DNA from: Geotalea uraniireducens Rf4
GTDB taxonomy: Bacteria; Desulfobacterota; Desulfuromonadia; Geobacterales; Geobacteraceae
Assembly: GCF_000016745.1 (NCBI RefSeq)
Contig: NC_009483.1
Span: forward strand, 2,550,001-2,582,000
DNA length: 32,000 nucleotides
Direction: 5' to 3'
Position numbers and translations under genes: made by a program. Positions 18,156 through 31,214 of this stretch are shown in pieces. The notes beneath the pieces are model-generated. The model searched no databases and was not told where the DNA came from. It was given only the letters and a program-made list of their open reading frames with translations. The number at the start of each line of letters is the position of its first letter. The stretch's first letter is position 1.

Positions 18156-19040
18156 ATGCAGATGCTCTGGCTTCCCATAACATTGCTGTGCGCCTTTTCC
18201 CTTGCCACCAGCGACGCCCTTACCAAAAAGGCACTCGCTGCCCGGTACAACGAATATCTCGTTGCCTGGCTCCGGCTCCTCCTGATGCTCCCTCCCCTCA
18301 CCGTCCTTCTGCTGTCGACCCCAAAGCCAACCCTCGGACCGGAGTTCCTGCTGACGATTCTAATTGCCCTCCCCCTCGAACTGGTGGCTCTAATCCTCTA
18401 CATCAAGGCGCTCAAACTCTCGCCACTCGGGTTGACGGTGCCGTTCCTGGCGCTGACACCACTCTTTCTACTGGTAATACCCTACCTTCTTCTGGGGGAG
18501 CGGATCTCCTTAACCGGCGGGATCGGCGTCCTCTTCATCGCCGCGGGAAGCTATGTCCTCAACCTGAGCAGACACGGCAACGGTATTCTGTCTCCTTTCC
18601 GGGCGATCCTCAAGGAGCGAGGATCTCTCTGCATGATCGGGGTCGCCGTCCTCTACAGCTTCACCGCCACCCTGAGCAAAAAGGCGATCTCCGTCTCGTC
18701 CCCGCTCTTTTTCGCCAGCTTTTATCCGATGCTGGTTTTTCTCTGCTTGACGCCTGTGGCACTCTGGAAAGGGCGAAACGAATTGAGGTTCATGAAACAA
18801 ACGGGGATTATGCAGGCAGCCCTGTTTCCGGCGTTCTTCAGTTTTGTGGAAACCATCACCGGAGTAGTTGCCTTGAGTCTGACCAACGTTGCGTACATGA
18901 TCGCGGTAAAACGCCTGAGCCTGCTTATGGGGATACTGTACGGATACTTTCTGTTTCGGGAGGATGGTCTGGGAGAGCGTCTTGCGGGGGGAATATTGAT
19001 GATTGCGGGAGTCGCGCTGATCGTGATCGGGGGAAGATAA
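18156..19040 (+). CDS. EamA/DMT-family transporter
   Basis: 294-aa protein with about 10 hydrophobic segments and two EamA-like halves. The start is uncertain (ATG at 18156 or 18162; no clear Shine-Dalgarno sequence). Confidence 0.8.
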   Translation: MQMLWLPITLLCAFSLATSDALTKKALAARYNEYLVAWLRLLLMLPPLTVLLLSTPKPTLGPEFLLTILIALPLELVALILYIKALKLSPLGLTVPFLALTPLFLLVIPYLLLGERISLTGGIGVLFIAAGSYVLNLSRHGNGILSPFRAILKERGSLCMIGVAVLYSFTATLSKKAISVSSPLFFASFYPMLVFLCLTPVALWKGRNELRFMKQTGIMQAALFPAFFSFVETITGVVALSLTNVAYMIAVKRLSLLMGILYGYFLFREDGLGERLAGGILMIAGVALIVIGGR

Positions 19041-19061
19041 AACCGCAGCTCCCAAGGGTTC

Positions 19062-19370
19062 CTACAGGAGTTGCACCTCGCTGACCCGAACGATCAGCAT
19101 CTCCTGGCGATAGCGAGCAGCCAGTTCCTCCCGGTAGCCCCGCCACCAGTCCTGGTCCAGTTGCTCCGTCATCACTTCATAGATGACGATATCATCATGT
19201 ACCGTCGTGGTACTGGTTTCCTTCCATAACCCCTTTGCAGGAGAGCGGACATAGGTGGTAAGACCGCCGAAACGTTCCGTCAGTTCGTCCCGCACCAGTT
19301 CAAATTCATGCTGAGGAAAAGGCTTCCCCTCATTATCGTAGAGCGGCAACAGTATCTGGATAAGATGCAT
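19062..19370 (-). CDS. Hypothetical protein
   Basis: Start placed at the internal ATG (MHLIQILLPLYDNEGKPF...), preceded by GAAGGAAA. The longer track ORF (to 19493) has no Shine-Dalgarno sequence. No family recognised. Confidence 0.55.
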   Translation of the reverse strand: MHLIQILLPLYDNEGKPFPQHEFELVRDELTERFGGLTTYVRSPAKGLWKETSTTTVHDDIVIYEVMTEQLDQDWWRGYREELAARYRQEMLIVRVSEVQLL

Positions 19371-19540
19371 GATTTCCTTCTGTTCGTGCATGCAATGGGT
19401 ATGGAACATTGTACCGCATTTTGCGGAGATTTTAGTCGGATCGCCTTCCAAAAGTGAGAAATGGAACAGAAATGGCCTGCGAGTGCAGGCCATTCAATGA
19501 AAGCATGGAATTCAAACAGGTGCGAAAACCTGCCGATATT

Positions 19541-19660
19541 TCACAGGGGGCCGGTTGATTTTTTACTGAAGAGCATGATGTACGCTAAAAAAGTGATACA
19601 GAGAGCGCCGATAAAAACAGCTGCAATCTCGAGCCCAAACTTGATAGTTGAAAATTCCAT
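19541..19660 (-). CDS. Possible 39-aa single-pass membrane peptide
   Basis: MEFSTIKFGLEIAAVFIGALCITFLAYIMLFSKKSTGPL, with a strong GGAGGG Shine-Dalgarno sequence 7 nt upstream. It is too short for the ORF track. Confidence 0.4.
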   Translation of the reverse strand: MEFSTIKFGLEIAAVFIGALCITFLAYIMLFSKKSTGPL

Positions 19661-19852
19661 GGTCAATCCCTCCAAGGTGTTAGTGATTACTGCGGGTGAC
19701 CATTTAGATAACATCATCATGTTACAGGGGGATTATGGAATGGCAAGGATCTTATGACATGTCGTAAGCTTGATTATAGCAGTAGATAGACAAGAGCGTC
19801 CCACCACGAATTTATGAAATACGCATCTTCTTCGGTTTGTTTAAACAAATAT

Positions 19853-20122
19853 TTATTGTTCCGTATTCTCCAAAAAGATAACTTCGTTGCTCCCTTCCGG
19901 ATGAGGCTTTACATGGACATGCAGAAACGCCTCGTAAGAAGGATAAATACCCATTGTGCTATACGCGTCAATGCCCTTGTCCTTTACATTCAGGTCCGTC
20001 CGCCAACAGGTTACTACCTGTCCGGTGTGAAAGATTACCCCATCGAGAACTCTTCCGGTGCCGCTGATGCCCGAGGGGTCGATTTTCCTAACAAGGGTGA
20101 AAAGCTTCGGATTTGCTTCCAT
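19853..20122 (-). CDS. 89-aa protein of unknown function, last gene of the CBASS operon
   Basis: GGAAGGTG Shine-Dalgarno sequence; the start is 11 nt after the Cap5 stop. It contains the motif DPSGISGTGRVLDGVIFHTGQVVTCW. Confidence 0.7.
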   Translation of the reverse strand: MEANPKLFTLVRKIDPSGISGTGRVLDGVIFHTGQVVTCWRTDLNVKDKGIDAYSTMGIYPSYEAFLHVHVKPHPEGSNEVIFLENTEQ

Positions 20123-20133
20123 GTGTCACCTTC

Positions 20134-21318
20134 CTATTCTACAGAACTTCTGTTTATGGCGAGTGCGCAAGTATATCCACCAGCGTCATTGATAAAGTCG
20201 TAGACCATAATTGGTGGGTCGCTTTTCGGTAAGAGCAAACGCCCACATTCAATAGCAACGGGAGCTGGCACTGCGCAAAACAGATGGATTGGCTTATTGT
20301 GCCCATTGTTTGTGCGCAAAATTTCCAGCAAACGCCTATACTCATAGCTGAACGTCTTGAGTTTTGATCGCTTAGAAAGAAAATCACGGCTAGGATTAGC
20401 CACCGATAATTCATAGCAATTATATTCATCTCCCATAACCGCAGAGACAGTAGACTTGTTAACACTGCTGCTTATGGAGATAATTACAGCTGTCTTTGCA
20501 TCAGGGTCGTGTTCCTCCGGGCCACACAAACTATAATACTGTTCAGAAAGTTCTTCTGGACTTTCCTTCCATTTCCAGTCATCGGTTTTAAGATGTCTTT
20601 GGTAGAGGTCAACAGTCCTTTTATCACCAATAAGATTACCTAAAAACACCAGCAGTGGAATTGGTGCCAATGCAAAAACAGAGATATGATTGAATTCTCT
20701 CCTTTTGACGCCTTGGTTAAAAATCTCATCGAACTTTGTTTTGATAATTCGAGATAAGAATGGCCAGTATCCTTCACCTGTTTCTTTTTCCGGTATATCT
20801 GACAAATCGATTATGTACGCATTTTCGTCAGCTGGGTACTTAGGTAGAATTGCCTGAAAAGCATGCGCCTGGTCGATATGGAAAGTTTTTCCGGCAATTG
20901 GCGCTTGGAAAATAAGGACATGGGTCTTTGAGTCTTCTTGTATTCCAGTAAGCACCTTGATTCTTTTTTCGTGCTCTGTTTTGTATTCACGAAGCAGTGC
21001 AACTGGATACTTCGGTACGTGTTCAATGCTGTCAATAATTTTACCGTGTTTTCTGCATGTAAGCATTAGATTCGAAATATCAGTTGCAAGGCGAAAAGAG
21101 TCAACGGGGTTCCCTCTTGGGCCGTTCGGTTCATAGGCGATAATATGAGAAATGACCGCCAGGTTGTCGTGCAGTTTGGTTAAATCATCAGAATATAAAA
21201 TGTCATTACAGCCGCGGAATTGGCAACGTCCGGCTGCTCGTGCCCAAAGCTGATTGACAACTTTGTCGGGAATTTTTATGCGACCTGCTTTCTTCTTTTT
21301 TTCTGGCACTTCTGCCAT
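20134..21318 (-). CDS. cap5: CBASS effector Cap5: HNH endonuclease fused to a SAVED sensor domain
   Basis: N-terminal HNH-type region (CQFRGCN..., ISHIIAYEPNGPRGN, NLMLTCRKHGKIID). The roughly 270-aa C-terminal region has SAVED-like features (HLFCAVPAPVAIECGRLLLPKSDPPIMVYDF). GGAGGG Shine-Dalgarno sequence, 10 nt after the Cap3 stop. Confidence 0.85.
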   Translation of the reverse strand: MAEVPEKKKKAGRIKIPDKVVNQLWARAAGRCQFRGCNDILYSDDLTKLHDNLAVISHIIAYEPNGPRGNPVDSFRLATDISNLMLTCRKHGKIIDSIEHVPKYPVALLREYKTEHEKRIKVLTGIQEDSKTHVLIFQAPIAGKTFHIDQAHAFQAILPKYPADENAYIIDLSDIPEKETGEGYWPFLSRIIKTKFDEIFNQGVKRREFNHISVFALAPIPLLVFLGNLIGDKRTVDLYQRHLKTDDWKWKESPEELSEQYYSLCGPEEHDPDAKTAVIISISSSVNKSTVSAVMGDEYNCYELSVANPSRDFLSKRSKLKTFSYEYRRLLEILRTNNGHNKPIHLFCAVPAPVAIECGRLLLPKSDPPIMVYDFINDAGGYTCALAINRSSVE

Positions 21319-21328
21319 AAACCCTCCA

Positions 21329-21823
21329 TTACAATAATTTCAGCATTGTAATCGTTCTCGAACGTCTGTGCCCCTCCCACATCCGCATCTCAGAGGTGCC
21401 GACAATCAGAAAGAAGAGACTATCGCTGTCGACTATGTCATTTTTCAACTTCCTTTTCCAGTTGGTATCGTCGATGCTTGACGGCGACGGATGTGGTTCC
21501 GGGTGGGTATGCCACTCGCCCAGGTAGGTGCAGGTATGATTGCTGGCCTCCCATGCCCTATCGATTACCTGCTGATGCGCCCTCTTCTTCCGGAAGAAAG
21601 TTGTCCTCGTGGCCCTGTCTCCAGGCATCGGGAAAGAAATCTTGTCAATCACGACATCCTGCGAGTCGATAATGTAGCGCCCCAACATTACGCCGCCGCC
21701 TTCCGGTTTATGCCGGTCATTTTGGATATATCCATGGATGGATGCTATCACCTCGACCGGAAGTTTGATTCGGCCGCCGTTTGGCCGGGCATATACCAGG
21801 TTATCACACAGTTTCAGGTTCAT
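21329..21823 (-). CDS. cap3: CBASS Cap3, JAB/JAMM-family isopeptidase
   Basis: JAMM motif in EASNHTCTYLGEWHTHPEPHPSPSSIDD (E...HxH...S..D). The start is uncertain: ATG at 21823 (20-nt overlap with cap2) or TTG at 21865. Confidence 0.85.
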   Translation of the reverse strand: MNLKLCDNLVYARPNGGRIKLPVEVIASIHGYIQNDRHKPEGGGVMLGRYIIDSQDVVIDKISFPMPGDRATRTTFFRKKRAHQQVIDRAWEASNHTCTYLGEWHTHPEPHPSPSSIDDTNWKRKLKNDIVDSDSLFFLIVGTSEMRMWEGHRRSRTITMLKLL

Positions 21824-23534
21824 GGCAGACAGGGCATTCTTCAAAGTGGTAATTAGCTTCCTCAATAAAATGGTCGTTCGAGGCGGAATACCTCGACGAC
21901 AGTTTCTTGCCGTTCTTCAGGAACTCCGTAGCATCGCCCCGCCATGAACGAATCAGGTTTGTTTTGATGTCGCCATTCAGTGTGGCGATAGCCAGCCTCG
22001 TAGCGAGTTCGGCAGTCTTCATGGCGTCGAGCGACCCGAACGGCGTAAAGACATTTCGGCAGCCATTAATGTTTTTGGCGAAAGACTGACCTTTTTCGGC
22101 AAATGATGCTCGGCACCGTAAATCCCCATCCTCGGGCTGATACAGACATTTAAGGCACCCCTTCTTGGAGCCGTTCCTCGTAAGAAGCGCATGCCCGCCA
22201 ATGCCATATGGCTCAAGCCAGGTGAAGATGACCGGGGGTGAATCGATGCCATGAATGTACTTGCTAAAGACCAGTTCTACCGTGACATTCCCAAGGGCGG
22301 ATATTATGAGGTCGAAATCCCCTATTTTGATTTTTCCCGATTCCAGCGCATTCTCAAGAGACAAGGGGATTGGAAGCACCTCGACAAATGGCAGTCTTCC
22401 CTCGATGTCGTCTTTGATGCCATCGACCTTATTCTTGCCGACATGTTTCTTCCCGAGAACATGACGGAACAGATTCTCATGAGTCAGCACATCCTTGTCA
22501 AGGACGGTCAATCGCAAGATGCCGGCACGAGTCAGTTCGTTGGCGATGAATCCACCAACGGAGCCGCATCCAAGCAGCAGTACACGTTTTTCGCGCAATG
22601 CCAGGTTGCTTCCGCCCCGGGGGAGAAGATACTCCTTGTCTCTCCGGGTTATGGCCAAAGGGATTATTTCACTTGCCCTCCCTGCCTCGTGCAATGGGTG
22701 CTCATGATTGACCCCCTTGAACTTGATTCCAAAGAGCGTTTCACCATCGGAGGCCCTGGGTAGGCTGAGAAGAATCACCTCTTCGTGATGAGGTTTTGTT
22801 AAGAGCGACAGCAGTTCGGATTTCTGGTCTGCCCGCAGATTGTCGAAGACTATCTTGCGGATATCGAGGAGTTCCCAGAACTTGTCAGGGTGAGGCGGAG
22901 TGATGACTGTCCCAATGGGCAACGGAATGTAGATGGCAGGATAATGTTTCCAAGGTACATGGGGTTTAATCTTGCGGTATTTCTTGTAACTCTGCTCATC
23001 GTCTGCAAGGTACCCTGCCCCACCTTTAACTTTATAAAGATGGATTCTTTTGACCTGGTCGCCAGGCGAGACAATAGAGGTAAAGAACTTCACCTTTTTG
23101 AGGCGGTCCCAGTACGCTCCGAACTCGTCAAGGAAGTCTTGATGGTTCTTCCCAGAAATGCCATCTACGACAACCTGTATGGCCCTTGAAAGTGCCTCCT
23201 GGGCTATTCCGGCAACATCGTCGAAATCGAGGACAGAGCCATCCTCCTGCGCGTAACATATATACCCGTCTGTTTCAACATGAGGGAGGATGCCAAACGA
23301 ATCCCATTGCGCCAGAAAGATATACGGAAGAGATAACGGGAAGGACTTCTTGACCCCAAAATAGAAATCTACCGGCACCCCATTCAACTCAATTACCAGC
23401 TTGTAGCTACGGCAAACAAAGCGGTCCTTGGCCCACGGTTCTGCCAGGCGCTTTGGGTGGAGTTCCGCAACAGATTTAACCAGTAGGCATGTTTCAAGTG
23501 CCTCTTTCAACAAGGATTCATCATAATTAAGCAT
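21804..23534 (-). CDS. cap2: CBASS Cap2, E2-like / E1-like (ThiF) fusion
   Basis: N-terminal E2-like domain with PHVETDGYICY (candidate catalytic Cys). Central ThiF/MoeB Rossmann LLLGCGSVGGFIANELTRAGILRLTVLDKD. C-terminal CxxC pairs (GCLKCL, ECPVCH). The start is placed at the ATG at 23534, which overlaps the CD-NTase stop by 8 nt (ATGCTTAA). Confidence 0.88.
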   Translation of the reverse strand: MLNYDESLLKEALETCLLVKSVAELHPKRLAEPWAKDRFVCRSYKLVIELNGVPVDFYFGVKKSFPLSLPYIFLAQWDSFGILPHVETDGYICYAQEDGSVLDFDDVAGIAQEALSRAIQVVVDGISGKNHQDFLDEFGAYWDRLKKVKFFTSIVSPGDQVKRIHLYKVKGGAGYLADDEQSYKKYRKIKPHVPWKHYPAIYIPLPIGTVITPPHPDKFWELLDIRKIVFDNLRADQKSELLSLLTKPHHEEVILLSLPRASDGETLFGIKFKGVNHEHPLHEAGRASEIIPLAITRRDKEYLLPRGGSNLALREKRVLLLGCGSVGGFIANELTRAGILRLTVLDKDVLTHENLFRHVLGKKHVGKNKVDGIKDDIEGRLPFVEVLPIPLSLENALESGKIKIGDFDLIISALGNVTVELVFSKYIHGIDSPPVIFTWLEPYGIGGHALLTRNGSKKGCLKCLYQPEDGDLRCRASFAEKGQSFAKNINGCRNVFTPFGSLDAMKTAELATRLAIATLNGDIKTNLIRSWRGDATEFLKNGKKLSSRYSASNDHFIEEANYHFEECPVCHEPETV

Positions 23535-24567
23535 GTGCAGAGGCACTGGCCGTGGATATGGCGCGGCTCTTTTTTTCGCCGGTGTCAGGTTTTTCCGGAA
23601 CAGGGAAATCGTCCCCAAAGACCTTTTTCAGGGTTTCACATGCCTTTACCGGGTCCACTTCGCTGGCGGCCGAGTCGAGGGCCTCCAGCAGACTGCCCAG
23701 TTTCTCCTTCAAAGTTGCCATCTGATTGTCGGTCATCTTCTCGAACAACTCGGAATAGGGTTCAACTGGGAGGTACACTCTCAGTCGGTCGCCGAAATTG
23801 TTCAGCATCCCATTGACAACACCCCTTGTTGCCTGCAGGTCGTTGTATTTGTACGTGCTCGCCACGATGTCCATTAAGGTCTTGTTGGGGGTGAACCAAT
23901 TGTATGCCGCGATGGTCAGGCCTATGCCGATTGGCGCGGCGTTTCCGTTGGAAGAGAAGTTGTAATCCTTCCACCGCTTCAAATACCGTATTACCATGAC
24001 GAATTGTTTCTTGTCGTCTCCCGCATGTTTGTCCCCGACCGTATCCGCCAACTTTTGTGGTTCGGAGATTTCCCAACATTTGTTATCGTCGGACGAATTC
24101 AGTTTCCCTTTCGCTAGGTATTTCTTGCCGTCTGAGTTACACGACTCGTCGGAATATACAGCCAGGTCCACATGATAAACCGGCTCGTCTCCTTTCTGGT
24201 AGAAAACGGTAACGCATGGCCTTCTCATGTCGACTTTCTTGGTGTGTCCGTTCAAGGCGTCATATACCCATTCCTTGACCTCCACCGGGTCCAGATAGTT
24301 GTCTTTCGAGACGTTGAAGGACACCCCGACATCGATATCGTAGTCGCTGTCCAGCGGGATAATGCCGGTACCCATTTTATAGCTCCCCTGGTCAAAAGTC
24401 TGGTACGTGGGAACCGGTTCGTCCTTCTCCTCGAAAATAGTCTTCAGACGTGACTTCAGTTTATCAAGGACGATGTCTCGTTTTTCCCTCAGGATCTGGT
24501 TTTCATCGAACTTCTTGAGCTTTATTGCATCATGAAAGGTCTCAAAATATTTTTGAACATCAGCCAT
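23527..24567 (-). CDS. CBASS cGAS/DncV-like nucleotidyltransferase (CD-NTase, SMODS domain)
   Basis: Pol-beta NTase signature: GSYKMGTGI ... DYDIDVGV ... HVDLAVY (GS, DxD, third Asp). 346 aa. Ala-terminated flexible tail ...RAISTASASAHA. GGGAGG Shine-Dalgarno sequence. Confidence 0.88.
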   Translation of the reverse strand: MADVQKYFETFHDAIKLKKFDENQILREKRDIVLDKLKSRLKTIFEEKDEPVPTYQTFDQGSYKMGTGIIPLDSDYDIDVGVSFNVSKDNYLDPVEVKEWVYDALNGHTKKVDMRRPCVTVFYQKGDEPVYHVDLAVYSDESCNSDGKKYLAKGKLNSSDDNKCWEISEPQKLADTVGDKHAGDDKKQFVMVIRYLKRWKDYNFSSNGNAAPIGIGLTIAAYNWFTPNKTLMDIVASTYKYNDLQATRGVVNGMLNNFGDRLRVYLPVEPYSELFEKMTDNQMATLKEKLGSLLEALDSAASEVDPVKACETLKKVFGDDFPVPEKPDTGEKKSRAISTASASAHA

Positions 24568-24593
24568 ATTGCCTCCCTGAATAACGAAGTGAT

Positions 24594-24848
24594 CTACTTC
24601 TTCCCTCTTCCTTGCCTCTGCGCCAATGCACTCCCCGCCGCGGTCTTTGAATCTTTATTTGTCCGTCCGTCACTCAATACCTTTGAGGCCGCTGTTGCCG
24701 CCTTTGCAGATGTAACCTTCGCCGGTGCCTTGGTCTGAGATAATGCACTACCAGCCGCTGTTTTCGATTTTGGAGCAGTACTGCCGCTTGTCAGGGTTTT
24801 TGATGCACTTGTTGCAGCCTTTGAACCTGTCACTTTTGCCTTTGTCAT
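24594..24848 (-). CDS. 84-aa Lys/Ala/Ser/Thr-rich protein made of two ~36-aa repeats (unknown function)
   Basis: Strong AAGGAGAA Shine-Dalgarno sequence before the ATG at 24848. The stop lies 27 nt before the CD-NTase start. The two repeats (AKVTGSKAATSASKTLTSGSTAPKSKTAAGSALSQT and AKVTSAKAATAASKVLSDGRTNKDSKTAAGSALAQR) are conserved as protein but diverged at synonymous sites. Confidence 0.75.
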   Translation of the reverse strand: MTKAKVTGSKAATSASKTLTSGSTAPKSKTAAGSALSQTKAPAKVTSAKAATAASKVLSDGRTNKDSKTAAGSALAQRQGRGKK

Positions 24849-24892
24849 GATGTTCTCCTTGAGCAATATTTTTCGGCATTTCACAAACCCAA

Positions 24893-25408
24893 CTACCTGA
24901 AATTCCTCGCCGACCCGAAAAAATTCGCTATCGCAATTGTCATCGCCGGTTTACTCACCTGAAAGATCCCCGCCAGTTTGTCCGGATTCTTCAAATCCGA
25001 CTGATACTTCTTCAACTGTTCCACCGGTATAAGCAGTTCCGAAGCGAAGGCATCCGCTTCCTGTTCCTTAGGCGGTTTGGCATTTTCCGGCATATCCTCA
25101 CCATATTCCCGCGCCACCTCGGCATCGTAAAACTCCCGCTTGTCGTGGTTGAGAAAGATGTGACCCAACTCGTGAGCCAGGGTGAAACGGGCACGAACGA
25201 AAGGTTTTGCCTTGTTCAACATGGCAACCCGAGTTCCGTCTAGTTCCAGAATCATCCCATCAAGTTCATCCGGATCGTCGAGCTCGACATATTCCAGGCC
25301 GAGGCTCTCACAGATTACTTGCAGGTTCGTGGGAACCTCGTTGATCTTGTGCTTTTTCAGAATCTTTCGCGCCATCTCTCTGGCATAGGTGTAGTTTGCC
25401 GCGATCAT
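24893..25408 (-). CDS. ImmA/IrrE-family zinc metallopeptidase (CapP-like)
   Basis: HEXXH in TLAHELGHIFLNH, with a downstream EQEADAFASELLIP motif typical of COG2856/ImmA. An ATGA overlap joins it to the upstream HTH gene. Confidence 0.88.
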   Translation of the reverse strand: MIAANYTYAREMARKILKKHKINEVPTNLQVICESLGLEYVELDDPDELDGMILELDGTRVAMLNKAKPFVRARFTLAHELGHIFLNHDKREFYDAEVAREYGEDMPENAKPPKEQEADAFASELLIPVEQLKKYQSDLKNPDKLAGIFQVSKPAMTIAIANFFGSARNFR

Positions 25409-26292
25409 TGTCCGCCTCCAGCCTGATCCAGGCGCTCCAGGGCAGCTTTCACCCTTGCCAGATAGTCATCGCTTACCAGCTTCTGCTCCTGAGGGCTCCC
25501 CTTTTTCTGCGCCAGTTTTTCAAGGACCTTGTTGACACTGCTTGACTGTACCGCCGCTCCCTTGGCGTCGTAACAGGTAGAACGGGCATGCACCATGGTA
25601 ACGGAGTTTTTCATGTCAAAGATGGAGAGGGTTGCATTCAGCAGCCGCTTCAGGTTGTCGAGAGTAAGTCCGAAAAACCGGACGATTCTGGCCGTAACGT
25701 CGGGAGAAATCTTTTCCGGCGGAAAGTCGTTATTCTCAATCTTTACCAGGTCCGCCGGTTCGATTTCCAGAGAAGCGCAGACCACATCGGGCAAGAGTCT
25801 GGTGGCGGCAATCACTTCCCTGATGTATTCGCCAAAGGAGATATATTGCTCCAGCAGGGATGTATTGGCCTTTTGTATTGCGGTGGTCCGCTCATTCTGC
25901 AACAGGTTGACGCGGGCATCGGGCACCTTTTCGATGAGGTTATGCACCAACAGGTTCATTGACGGCGTGATCGCCACCTCTCCCCGTTCCCAGCGGCCGT
26001 AGGTATTGCGCCCGATCTGCAGCAGATCGCAAATCTCGTCCAGCTTCATATCAAGAACGCGGCGCAACGTTTTCAGTTGCTCCGGCGTCAGGAGCGGCTT
26101 CAGCCCGAACTCCATGGCGATCCTCTTCTTGTCGATCTCCAGGCTCTGGGCATGGGTAAAGGTCACCTCCCCGCAGGCCGGGCAGATTTCGCAATCAAGG
26201 TCGTGTAAGACGTGACTCTCGTCGTTGACGGTTATGGTAAGTTCGGTTTTGGCAGCGCGGTATTCGGCCTCAAAACAGTTCGTGCAGATCAT
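25405..26292 (-). CDS. MqsA-like zinc-ribbon plus XRE HTH protein with a second HTH-like domain and C-terminal extension
   Basis: N-terminal CxxC...CxxC ribbon (CTNCFEAEY...CEICPACGEVTF). HTH LTPEQLKTLRRVLDMKLDEICDLLQIGRNTYGRWERGEVAITPSMNLLV, as in MqsA/YgiT. A second XRE-like segment FGEYIREVIAATRLLPDVVCASLEIEPADLVKIENNDF. 295 aa, whereas I recall about 130 aa for MqsA. Confidence 0.8.
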   Translation of the reverse strand: MICTNCFEAEYRAAKTELTITVNDESHVLHDLDCEICPACGEVTFTHAQSLEIDKKRIAMEFGLKPLLTPEQLKTLRRVLDMKLDEICDLLQIGRNTYGRWERGEVAITPSMNLLVHNLIEKVPDARVNLLQNERTTAIQKANTSLLEQYISFGEYIREVIAATRLLPDVVCASLEIEPADLVKIENNDFPPEKISPDVTARIVRFFGLTLDNLKRLLNATLSIFDMKNSVTMVHARSTCYDAKGAAVQSSSVNKVLEKLAQKKGSPQEQKLVSDDYLARVKAALERLDQAGGGQ

Positions 26293-26303
26293 GGTCGTTT
26301 CCT

Positions 26304-26642
26304 CTATTTGATCGTGAAAGAGGTCAGCTTCCAGCCGATGAATTCACCGGTCTGCGGGTGGTAGTTGCTGCACACCTTGCAGTAAACCGCCACCCCGGTG
26401 GTGCTGGTCCCCTGTATCACATAGTGGGTGTTGTGCGGATTGCTTGCCCGCTCGCTCGTTGCCGGCATGGCCTTCTCAATAGTGTCGGCAGCCATGATGA
26501 CCTTTTCCACATCGGCCTCGTAGAGCTTGGCGCGATCCATGTCGTCCATGCAATCCCTGGTTTTACGTATCTTCCCCACCAGATAGGCATCCTTAATTCT
26601 CTTGAGGACAAGATCATCCAGTTCCGTTCCAATTGGTGTCAT
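26304..26642 (-). CDS. MqsR-like toxin-fold protein (tentative)
   Basis: 112 aa from the ATG at 26642. Hand alignment to E. coli MqsR recalled from memory: GKIRKTRDC vs GQVRTTRSA, VAVYCKV vs QVYLKIT, WKLTSFTIK vs LIVSFKEK. The gene order is toxin-first, as in mqsRA. Start could also be 26660. Confidence 0.55.
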   Translation of the reverse strand: MTPIGTELDDLVLKRIKDAYLVGKIRKTRDCMDDMDRAKLYEADVEKVIMAADTIEKAMPATSERASNPHNTHYVIQGTSTTGVAVYCKVCSNYHPQTGEFIGWKLTSFTIK

Positions 26643-26712
26643 ACATACCCCAGACAACATACTGCACCAATTGGTGTTATTATTAATATACCAATTGGTG
26701 TTTTGATGTCAA
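26627..26712 (-). promoter_or_regulatory. Sigma70-type promoter with three palindromic operators for the nine-gene operon
   Basis: On the minus strand: TTGACA (26712-26707), 16-nt spacer, TATATT. The 11-mer ACACCAATTGG occurs three times (plus-strand CCAATTGGTGT at 26691-26701, 26667-26677 and 26629-26639). The full palindrome CACCAATTGGTG is at 26665-26676. Confidence 0.75.
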
Positions 26713-26845
26713 TTAATTTCTCATTCCATGATTTTTGCTGCTGATTTCACCGAGCTACAACTCTCTGTCATCGCAGATAGCAAGGACAAAGCTATCAGCT
26801 CAGCTATATTCGTAATTTCGAAAACATGCAACAATACCCCAGAAA

Positions 26846-26889
26846 TCAAAAAAGCCGCCAATCAGCATATCCCTGACCCGGCGGCTTTT
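26846..26889. terminator. Bidirectional terminator-like hairpin upstream of the island promoter
   Basis: Stem AAGCCGCC (26852-26859) / GGCGGCTT (26880-26887), with inner TCAG/CTGA pairing. It is flanked by an A-run and a T-run. Confidence 0.55.
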
Positions 26890-27088
26890 ATCTACACGCA
26901 GTGCATCTATTCCACTTTTTATCACCCATCCAAAAAAACTCCGCATAACGCAATAAAATCAGCTTTCTATTTACACCCTGGATGCACTCGGTGTCAACCT
27001 TTAGAAGGGAAAAAGGGTCTGCGCTTGACAAGAGGCAAATGCTTTCTTTAACAATCCATTAATAACCTACACCCCATAAAAGACTAAT

Positions 27089-27185
27089 TTAACAGGGATG
27101 AACAGGATGAACGGGATGACACCACTCAAGCTAAATTCACTCCCTGTTAAGTCAGATTTGGGATTCTGTCAGAGGGCGTCATCCC
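27089..27185. repeat. Nested inverted repeats plus three tandem 9-mers
   Basis: TTAACAGGGA (27089-27098) / TCCCTGTTAA (27141-27150). Tandem GGGATGAAC-AGGATGAAC-GGGATGAC(A) at 27095-27121. GGGATGAC (27113-27120) / GTCATCCC (27178-27185). Confidence 0.6.
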
Positions 27186-27256
27186 TCGTCACTGGACAAG
27201 TCTCCAGCCGGCCTCGAAAGATCAGCCTTCCAAGCCATGTCTCCTCTTACCCACCA

Positions 27257-27288
27257 AACAAAAAAGCCGTCCCGTCAGCACGACGGAC
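27257..27288 (-). terminator. Rho-independent terminator (second of two after brnA)
   Basis: On the minus strand, a GTCCGTC / GACGG(G)AC stem followed by GGCTTTTTTGTTTGG. Confidence 0.5.
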
Positions 27289-27360
27289 CTTTCTACCCTG
27301 GATATTTACCCGCTTACCGGCGTATGGGCGTACCCTGACAACCTCCATAAGGCGGCACAA

Positions 27361-27388
27361 ACGAAAAAGGCCGCATTGTCGCGGCCTC
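27361..27388 (-). terminator. Rho-independent terminator after brnA
   Basis: AGGCCGC / GCGGCCT 7-bp stem with a 6-nt loop, followed on the minus strand by TTTTTCGTTTG. Confidence 0.6.
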
Positions 27389-27531
27389 ACGTGCAGAACT
27401 ATTGCTCTCAATCTACCTCTCTCACCGCAGAGAACGTAGAGGACGCAGAGGAATGCTAGAAATGACTTCAAGCAGCGCCTCAGGCTGCTACTTTCCGTTA
27501 AAGGTATAAGGCTGTCACAGCCGGCTTGTCC

Positions 27532-27750
27532 TTACGCCGCCTTTTTCGCCTTGGCTCTAGCGATCCGGACGAGTGACCGCAAGGCATCGTTCACCGATTT
27601 CGAATCGGGGAAAAAATCGGCGACATCCTTTTCAAGCAGGACCAGATTCGTCCCCTTCGCATACTCTCCCGCATATTTTCCTTTCACCCCCGTTTTCATT
27701 GCGGAGAGATCATATTCGGGACGCACATCATCATTACTCGTTTTCTTCAT
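27532..27750 (-). CDS. brnA: BrnA-type antitoxin
   Basis: 72 aa. MKK...RPEYDLSAMKTGVKGKYA...GTNLVLLEKDVADFFPDSKSVNDALRSL matches the antitoxin family usually paired with BrnT/DUF497. 17-nt overlap with the upstream toxin frame. Confidence 0.75.
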   Translation of the reverse strand: MKKTSNDDVRPEYDLSAMKTGVKGKYAGEYAKGTNLVLLEKDVADFFPDSKSVNDALRSLVRIARAKAKKAA

Positions 27751-28008
27751 AGTAGTTCCTCTCGGCGCGAGTCGCCTTTCTTGCAGAGATTATTCTGATA
27801 GCCCCGGCCCGGTCGGCATGTGCAAAGAGCAGCACCCGTCCTGCCTCCGACATGCCGATGGTAATGAACCGTTCCTCATCCTCAGAATGGTCAGGATCAG
27901 GAAATGTCAACGACAAGGGATCACCAAAAACAGAAGCAGCTTCAGCGAAGGAAACGCCGTGTTCTTCAGGTTGCTCACAGCCTTTCTCTTATCCCAGGCG
28001 AATTGCAT
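27734..28008 (-). pseudogene. brnT: BrnT (DUF497) toxin gene with a 1-nt frameshift
   Basis: The ATG at 28008 gives MQFAWDKRKAVSNLK, after which the frame derails. The remainder, (E)HGVSFAEAASVFGDPLSLTFPDPDHSEDEERFITIGMSEAGRVLLFAHADRAGAIRIISARKATRAERNYY, is in another frame. The junction AAGAACAC (about 27964) appears to lack one base relative to the expected K-K-H-G. Confidence 0.7.

Positions 28009-31139: not shown

Positions 31140-31214
<75 letters not shown>

Follow-up and report, generated by a model that had tools for sequence, protein, structure and literature searches.

A widespread lysine-rich mini-protein family associated with HTH/M78 switches and defence operons, represented by a small gene in a type II CBASS cassette of Geotalea uraniireducens

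What determines the moment at which defence operons and prophages switch on is actively studied. The switches described for them, namely CapH/CapP, CapW, CapK/CapS, ImmR/ImmA and RosmerTA, are to our knowledge two-protein modules. The closest counterpart of the locus presented here is CapH/CapP, studied by the Corbett laboratory, where an HTH repressor and an M78 peptidase are encoded ahead of interchangeable immune operons; in the accessible portions of the two reports, the portability of this front end across different cargo is already described (bioRxiv 10.1101/2022.04.27.489752 and 10.64898/2026.05.16.725639). Word searches of the 2022 preprint (bioRxiv 10.1101/2022.04.27.489752) revealed no mention of a small extra component. 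Neither a conserved small third component nor an MqsA-type, co-directional cassette with a GAF-less peptidase was found in the accessible parts of the CapH/CapP and CapK/CapS literature. CapS, considered as a possible identity of the small protein described below, was rejected, being a STAS-domain protein according to the available part of its description (PMC13373217).

The window analyzed in this study is a stretch of 32,000 nucleotides of Geotalea uraniireducens Rf4 (NC_009483.1, positions 2,550,001 to 2,582,000). From position 26660 down to 19853, every gene is located on the minus strand. As proposed in the initial annotation, an M78 peptidase and an HTH regulator are encoded upstream of the small gene and CD-NTase, Cap2, Cap3 and HNH-SAVED proteins downstream of it. 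The features of the cassette, in the direction of transcription, are as follows:

26665..26712 (-): promoter TTGACA-16-TATATT (26712-26685) with two CACCAATTGGTG palindromes (26665-26676 and 26689-26700)
26304..26660 (-): first cassette gene, 118-aa protein without family assignment, conserved in L011, L036 and L013 (E = 1e-55 to 1e-61)
25405..26292 (-): MqsA-type zinc-finger and XRE HTH protein, 295 aa (Pfam MqsA_antitoxin, 1.9e-12; TIGR03830, 2e-17)
24893..25408 (-): short M78/ImmA-type metallopeptidase, CapP-like, 171 aa (Pfam Peptidase_M78, 5e-16; PADLOC capP, 5e-28)
24854..24860 (-): Shine-Dalgarno sequence AAGGAGA, 5 nt before the ATG of the small gene, conserved in A4
24594..24848 (-): small basic protein gene, 84 codons plus stop, two predicted helical-hairpin repeats
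24735..24839 (-): repeat 1, residues 4-38 (self-alignment and shuffle test)
24618..24722 (-): repeat 2, residues 43-77, with an invariant DGR(T) loop
23527..24567 (-): CD-NTase, first cargo gene (Pfam/PADLOC-type family matches)
21804..23618 (-): Cap2, E2 and E1 (family match)
21329..21865 (-): Cap3, JAB (family match)
20134..21318 (-): HNH-SAVED effector of the Cap5 type (family matches)
19853..20122 (-): 89-aa ORF matching phrog_7499

The peptidase of the window carries the CapP signature. Several features distinguish the cassette from CapH/CapP, which is divergently organized, whereas the window cassette is co-directional. As presumed repressor and counterpart of CapH, it encodes a 295-aa MqsA-type protein with a zinc finger and an HTH. 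Its 171-aa peptidase consists of the peptidase domain only, lacks a GAF domain and aligns only to residues 91-161 of CapP (7T5T, 291 aa). In addition, the cassette contains two extra conserved genes, encoding the small protein and the 118-aa protein, the latter without a family match in Pfam, NCBIfam, PADLOC or PHROGs. Modularity of regulators and cargo is known from CapH/CapP, while the small third component is apparently new with respect to the accessible literature.

TTGACA-16-TATATT was the sole strong promoter-like site found for the operon. No terminator-like site was found between the small gene and the CD-NTase gene, and the only Rfam match in the window was a tRNA located elsewhere. 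Since one operator-bearing promoter drives them, the small protein is most likely co-expressed with the regulators and the CBASS proteins. Outside the sister cassettes described below, the CACCAATTGGTG palindrome was found neither in the rest of the window nor in 163 other loci searched. In analogy to CapH/CapP, the zinc-finger/HTH protein would bind the CACCAATTGGTG palindromes and would itself be cleaved by the M78 peptidase.

The product of the small gene (MTKAKVTGSK...GRGKK, 84 aa) contains 14 lysines, three arginines, two aspartates and no glutamate, with a computed net charge of +15 and a pI of 11.4. A recount agreed with the initial annotation, which had listed 14 lysines, two acidic residues and neither aromatic residues nor cysteine. 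All homologues begin at the same methionine; none uses the GTG further upstream with which the mechanical ORF starts. The strong Shine-Dalgarno sequence claimed for the gene was found, while the gap between its stop codon and the ATG of the CD-NTase gene is 26 nt and not 27. The protein was also described initially as two repeats, which holds: residues 4-38 and 43-77 share 24 identities over 35 residues, and the BLOSUM62 score of the self-alignment was 108, compared to 31.7 ± 5.7 in 2000 shuffles (z = 13.4), none of which reached 108. SKTAAGSAL occurs twice, with different codons at six of the nine positions and every change synonymous, exactly as had been listed. Over both repeats, different codons are used for 15 of the 24 identical residues (dS approximately 1.9, dN/dS 0.16), and the two repeats are ancient. 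The core motif of the protein is AAxxASKxL...SKxAAGSALSQ. Four helices arranged as two hairpins were predicted by AlphaFold2 from a 30-sequence alignment (mean pLDDT 77), a model that argues against the plain disorder assumed at first.

The protein belongs to a widespread, uncharacterized family. At the level of 90%-identity clusters, 850 homologues were found, and at 50% identity the family comprises 978 clusters; nearly all members are 45-110 aa long. Together with a dN/dS of 0.08 to 0.09 against the closest relatives at nearly saturated synonymous sites, these numbers bear out the earlier view that the ORF encodes a real protein under selection. By pattern scans, the family was detected in at least 344 species genomes, and it extends over Desulfuromonadota, Chlorobiota, Spirochaetota, Proteobacteria, Planctomycetota, Acidobacteriota, Patescibacteria, Deinococcota and Firmicutes. 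Across phyla, members share 55-85% amino acid sequence identity and 18 invariant residues. A pattern scan of IMG/VR identified the family in 72 viral contigs, where the genes mostly encode one-repeat forms of 42-48 aa; the unit that occurs alone in these phage versions is repeat 2. The profile phrog_5079 (function unknown) matched the small protein in two stretches (E = 9.6e-21, 74.6 bits). Both repeats match this 49-position profile, and the one-repeat viral proteins resemble phrog_5079, while the window protein differs from it as a tandem duplication of the unit encoded in a chromosomal defence operon. No match was obtained with tblastn against GenBank phages and only two, both in Deinococcus, against plasmids, in either case probably owing to the low-complexity filter of BLAST. 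An enterobacterial copy gave no blastn match in 5,426 complete E. coli genomes.

The composition of the window protein is typical of the family. Median values are a net charge of +15 (over approximately 84 aa) and 14 lysines, and 98% of the members carry a net charge of at least +6. Aromatic residues are absent from 251 of 284 domains, leaving the family almost without a hydrophobic core, and cysteine is absent from 270 of 284. In the two SKxAAGSAL motifs, the lysine positions hold lysine in 97-98% of the members and arginine in 2%, and arginine is rare at all lysine-rich columns. The conserved S, T, K, R, Q and G residues are located in the loop and at the helix N-terminus. Three of the 284 members, among them the Deinococcus gobiensis copy, are net negative and retain the core motif.

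Neither Pfam, NCBIfam nor PADLOC contained a model matching the small protein. A PDB sequence search with the family profile gave no match, and Foldseek returned only generic helical-hairpin noise (best E-values 4.4 in PDB and 2.5 in BFVD). The motif strings of the family were not found in the literature searched. A DNA motif flanking the gene and shared across lineages was not found either; only AAGGAGG-type Shine-Dalgarno words and the first codons were enriched, and universal sequence-specific binding was rejected on these grounds.

Information on the side of the operon to which the small gene belongs is provided by sister cassettes. The window, L011 and L036 have four genes in common, those for the 118-aa protein, the repressor, the peptidase and the small protein; their cargo is a type II CBASS, SIR2-HerA and a patatin-CBASS, respectively. 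DNA alignment of these three loci covers capP and the small gene and stops at the stop codon of the latter, so that the small gene is to be assigned to the regulatory side and not to the cargo. In a further cassette, L013, the homology starts only at the Shine-Dalgarno sequence of the small gene. According to these breakpoints, the small gene is a discrete module moving with the regulators. All four sister cassettes possess the same promoter, operators and regulators in front of CBASS, SIR2-HerA, patatin-CBASS or a phospholipase C-type operon; the promoter and both CACCAATTGGTG palindromes are invariant among them, while the DNA around these elements is not conserved. Both the breakpoint and the shared promoter thus identify the small gene as an accessory member of a CapH/CapP-type cassette with exchangeable cargo. 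With a shared front end and different cargo, the four cassettes represent a natural experiment on the role of the small protein.

The genes downstream of the small gene were compared in 82 bacterial loci. The 80 genome loci of the set are the best-scoring ones, with a crude gene calling, and the sample is accordingly biased toward close relatives. A cyclase search seeded with two divergent CD-NTases was positive in only one of the 82 non-redundant bacterial loci (L036), and no cyclase model was among the 25 most common families when 140 CD-NTase-sized neighbours from 69 loci were analyzed with PADLOC. The downstream genes are highly varied and mostly of the defence type. They encode SIR2 and HerA, QatA, GASH with double GTPases, HNH/FRG/GmrSD, HamA and LmuA as well as TIR, SLOG, KAP NTPase, OLD/AAA_21, multiubiquitin with E2 and restriction subunits; the defence operons preceded by the small gene include SIR2-HerA, Qat, Hachiman, Lamassu, TIR, OLD-type, GTPase and restriction systems. 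The next gene is located on the same strand in 62 of the 82 loci and on the opposite strand in 17. Of the 63 loci with a same-strand next gene (window included), 31 have its start no more than 40 nt away. In the homologues of the SKTAAGSAL family, a conserved linkage to CBASS was hence not found, the very outcome that the initial annotation had named as speaking against its proposal. The small protein is not tied to CBASS and is not a CBASS-specific cyclase partner.

On the upstream side, the M78 peptidase was the most recurrent neighbour, encoded in 14 of 83 clustered loci (window included) and in 13 of these upstream of the small gene. Among the 82 loci without the window, the M78 matches bunch within the 2 kb directly upstream (less than 1.5 kb in 11 loci) and are isolated elsewhere. 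An HTH gene was present in the first upstream kb in 12 of 78 loci, compared to about 1-2% per kb elsewhere. Altogether, only about 15% of the bacterial loci have an HTH or M78 gene close by. An XRE HTH and an M78 gene adjoin the small gene ahead of an immune operon in the window, L011, L036, L012, L014 and L015 and also in L017, L019, L026, L041 and L044. RmrA, capP and capH were the most common PADLOC models among the neighbours. The neighbouring peptidases fall into three classes: short co-directional ones of 171-180 aa, divergent ones of CapP length (263-288 aa) and HTH-fused ones of the RmrA type (371-412 aa), which are the antitoxin of RosmerTA systems. In the window, L011 and L036, 44-48 nt separate the short peptidase gene from the small gene downstream of it; in L012, L014 and L015, the small gene is located directly after RmrA-type genes.

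In viral loci, an HTH gene was present within the first kb downstream in 34 of 68 cases, and the phage neighbours within two genes mainly belong to repressor and regulator PHROGs. The one-repeat viral form is located beside CI/Cro-like repressors. A recurrent prophage layout consists of the small gene, one or two short HTH genes on the opposite strand and then a larger HTH repressor gene on the same strand, after which an M78 gene comes in some cases. The small gene is therefore positionally enriched beside the HTH/M78 genes of ImmR/ImmA, CI/Cro and RosmerTA (RmrA) switches in bacteria and prophages. None of these switches is described with a conserved small basic third component, and the small protein differs from their constituents in that it contains neither an HTH nor a peptidase motif itself.

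In rare cases among the 150 listed representatives, the repeat domain is part of an antitoxin encoded beside a toxin gene. P0128 combines an antitoxin-type HTH of the HTH_37 family (40 bits) with the repeat domain, and the first base of its gene is the last base of a Gp49-type toxin gene. This architecture recurs in P0224; since the two proteins are only 47% identical, the fusion of HTH_37 and the repeat has persisted while the sequences diverged considerably. P0123 carries the repeat domain ahead of an Xre/MbcA/ParS toxin-binding domain, which was seen in this single protein and matched just below the Pfam cut-off (E = 5.6e-5, 23.5 bits versus 24.5). The P0123 gene adjoins a RES toxin gene, and the repeat domain stands in the usual slot of the DNA-binding HTH of the antitoxin, a position equivalent to the N-terminal DNA-binding domain of Xre/MbcA/ParS antitoxins.

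Taken together, the small protein is an ancient, strongly constrained and portable mini-protein tied by position to HTH/M78 switches as well as the 5' side of diverse defence operons. As to its function, we tentatively favour a portable basic helical-hairpin protein that serves HTH/peptidase switches as a cofactor or sensor and binds nucleic acid irrespective of sequence, with a probability of roughly 0.4. The lysine-based charge, the lack of a hydrophobic core, the predicted hairpins with conserved residues in the loop and at the helix N-terminus and the antitoxin architectures all point in this direction. Each unit of approximately 36 aa would form one helical hairpin, with one or two units per member, and the small gene is a portable module of the regulatory front end in mobile defence operons and prophage immunity regions. 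In the window, it is the fourth of eight genes, encoding the 118-aa protein, the zinc-finger/HTH protein, the M78 peptidase, the small protein, CD-NTase, Cap2, Cap3 and HNH-SAVED. Upon removal of the repressor, the small protein would be produced along with the regulators and the CBASS proteins. It might then fold on nucleic acid (DNA or ssDNA), contacting the phosphate backbone non-sequence-specifically via the conserved loop, the N-terminus of the second helix (DGRT...SK) and the many lysines, and tune or inform the HTH/peptidase switch as a cofactor. The cyclase would not be its target.

Lysine- and alanine-rich nucleoid proteins that bind the backbone non-specifically, such as histone H1-like tails and helix-hairpin-helix proteins, are the comparison class for such a protein. 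They share with it the extreme basicity, the preference for lysine over arginine, helices of small residues and a duplicated hairpin unit. A sequence or fold relationship is not detectable, however, and DNA binding of the small protein is putative; neither Pfam, NCBIfam, PDB nor Foldseek revealed homology to known nucleoid or histone-like families (HU, H-NS, H1-like, HhH). The histone-like DNA binder suggested as an alternative in the initial annotation is nevertheless close to the reading preferred here. Caution is advised by the acidic members, the many loci without a near HTH or M78 gene and the lack of a structural precedent. The opposite-strand downstream genes at 17 of 82 loci and the monocistronic plasmid copies likewise count against this reading. 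As the net-negative members keep the core motif, the ligand of the conserved surface may not be nucleic acid. The small protein could be a missing cofactor of the known two-protein modules or an independent signal-handling element. A more far-reaching version, which we consider doubtful, views the family as a mini-domain that acts with extreme promiscuity as the sensor or adaptor of HTH/M78-type switches in bacteria, plasmids and temperate phages. It would be an overlooked third component that passes a nucleic-acid or DNA-damage cue, or a lysine-specific modification of the two invariant SK lysines, to repressors and antitoxins and would in this way gate many unrelated defence systems and prophage induction.

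The mechanism favoured initially was that of a lysine-bearing acceptor or scaffold dedicated to the conjugation of the CD-NTase C-terminus by Cap2. The position of the small gene 26 nt upstream of the CD-NTase gene in an operon with Cap2 and Cap3 fits this proposal, as do the lysines of SKxAAGSAL (97-98% Lys, 2% Arg) and the E1/E2 or multiubiquitin genes at a few other loci (L036, L048, Multi_ubiq and Prok-E2_E matches). A CD-NTase is encoded in only one of 82 other loci, though, and the downstream defence genes are varied, which leaves a CBASS-specific acceptor unsupported. Moreover, the identical cassette precedes SIR2-HerA in L011, most cargo lacks conjugation machinery, one-repeat forms are encoded in prophage immunity regions and the domain is fused to antitoxins. 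A dedicated acceptor is thus very unlikely: the initial annotation was accurate in its observations and wrong in the mechanism it favoured, and a tempting lead for the long-sought conjugation targets of Cap2 is removed. Even less credible, and in our view close to negligible, is a translated leader ORF whose translation, and not its product, controls downstream expression. Such a role would suit the strong Shine-Dalgarno sequence of the family and the short distance (within 40 nt in 31 of 63 loci) to same-strand next genes, but not the strong purifying selection on the amino acid sequence with saturated synonymous sites, nor the monocistronic copies and domain fusions.

Three further explanations of the small protein were considered. 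In CapP, ssDNA is held in a groove between the peptidase and GAF domains, and the GAF domain helps in ssDNA binding, according to the accessible part of the CapP preprint. The 171-aa window peptidase corresponds to the peptidase part of 7T5T only. An extremely basic protein encoded 44-48 nt after the short peptidase gene in the window, L011 and L036 could therefore be a trans-acting subunit that binds ssDNA and gives a DNA-damage signal to short M78 peptidases without GAF. The small gene is also found beside CapP-length, divergent (263-288 aa) and HTH-fused RmrA-type (371-412 aa) peptidases, and an M78 gene is missing from the vicinity at most loci, among them nearly all viral ones; a trans-acting subunit is accordingly unlikely, and replacement of a missing GAF domain was rejected as a general explanation, as peptidases of the two longer classes are accompanied too. 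A second possibility is a stability module, either a degron or a competitive decoy for a conserved host protease, that sets the lifetime of the repressor or antitoxin, as CIII of phage lambda sets the lifetime of CII. The low-hydrophobicity, probably conditionally folded sequence, its attachment to antitoxins already complete with an HTH of their own (P0128 and P0224), the location beside lysis-lysogeny switches and the cross-phylum conservation, which fits a universal protein partner and tolerates acidic variants, are in line with this. Known degron motifs and aromatic or hydrophobic patches of the kind preferred by Lon are absent, and we regard a stability module as quite improbable.

Finally, the small protein might resemble cargo, as a stress or effector protein whose induction accompanies that of the operon. 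It could coat DNA and protect it, as small acid-soluble spore proteins or Ddr proteins do, or be a small RosmerTA-like toxin. The fusions to antitoxins that have separate toxins speak against a toxin, as does the absence of transmembrane or amphipathic killer features, and overall we judge this explanation to be unlikely as well. It would be compatible with the strong Shine-Dalgarno sequence found family-wide, the position straight after RmrA-type genes in L012, L014 and L015 and the monocistronic copies in several places, some of them on plasmids. It would also agree with the RDRM-type operator upstream of the D. gobiensis copy, although the two other Deinococcus copies lack an RDRM (one of three positive). 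In this plasmid-borne copy, the 17-bp palindrome TTATGCTGTGGACATAA is located approximately 54 nt before the start codon and fits the published RDRM sites bound by DdrO (PMC8533742).

The promoter of the regulatory cassette, including both copies of its palindrome, is unchanged across four cassettes of differing cargo (that of the window and three sister loci). The two CACCAATTGGTG copies are probably operators of the MqsA-type zinc-finger/HTH repressor encoded in the cassette. The elements concerned are located in the window as follows:

26665-26712, minus strand: promoter TTGACA-16-TATATT, in which the 12-bp palindrome CACCAATTGGTG occurs twice
26304-26660, minus strand: 118-aa protein, the first cassette gene, immediately ahead of the MqsA-type gene
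24893-25408, minus strand: CapP-like M78 peptidase of only 171 aa

The 118-aa protein is conserved in the first cassette position and gave no family match; in its position and C-terminal pattern it is reminiscent of MqsR-type toxins, albeit without a profile match. While the GAF domain of CapP forms half of the ssDNA-binding groove, the M78 peptidase of the window is devoid of such a domain.

The G+C content of the regulator and CBASS island (window 19000-28000) is 43-53%, compared to 54-61% in its flanks (approximately 16-19 kb and 28-30 kb). Since this is below the flanks and a tRNA gene is located nearby, horizontal acquisition of the island is suggested. Features of the island's 3' end and surroundings are:

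19853-20122, minus strand: 89-aa ORF located 3'-terminally in the CBASS operon (match to phrog_7499, function unknown, E = 1.8e-13)
27734-27916, minus strand: BrnT ribonuclease toxin gene (Pfam E = 1.7e-14)
27532-27750, minus strand: 72-aa ORF, putative BrnT antitoxin, overlapped by the BrnT gene
31140-31214: tRNA-Gly(GCC) gene, 3.5 kb past the island

The BrnT gene and the 72-aa ORF, which looks like a candidate for the cognate antitoxin, adjoin the CBASS island (27532-27916, minus strand).

Homologues of the small Lys-rich protein are also encoded in other settings. In three proteobacterial loci (L024, L028 and L030), the small gene follows genes for a heavy-metal P-type ATPase and a MerR regulator instead of a regulator of the defence type. 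One Oceanispirochaeta contig harbors two copies on the same strand, about 10.7 kb apart (L021 and L022), which scored equally in the tblastn confirmation and in the family-profile search. In L014, the small gene lies behind a RosmerTA-like pair and is followed immediately by a gene for a large protein:

L014, 8395-13536: 1713-aa protein, no Pfam match

The DGRT-containing repeat is the second unit in most family members outside Deinococcus, whereas it occupies the first place in Deinococcus copies (L091, 7001-7249; L082, 2220-2492). This reversed order suggests either an independent duplication or a unit swap. The D. gobiensis member, WP_014686914.1, has a negative net charge and is not Lys-rich. 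Upstream of its gene, a palindrome resembling the DdrO-bound operator was found, which is absent from two other Deinococcus copies:

L092 (Deinococcus gobiensis plasmid P4), 6922-6938: RDRM-type palindrome TTATGCTGTGGACATAA
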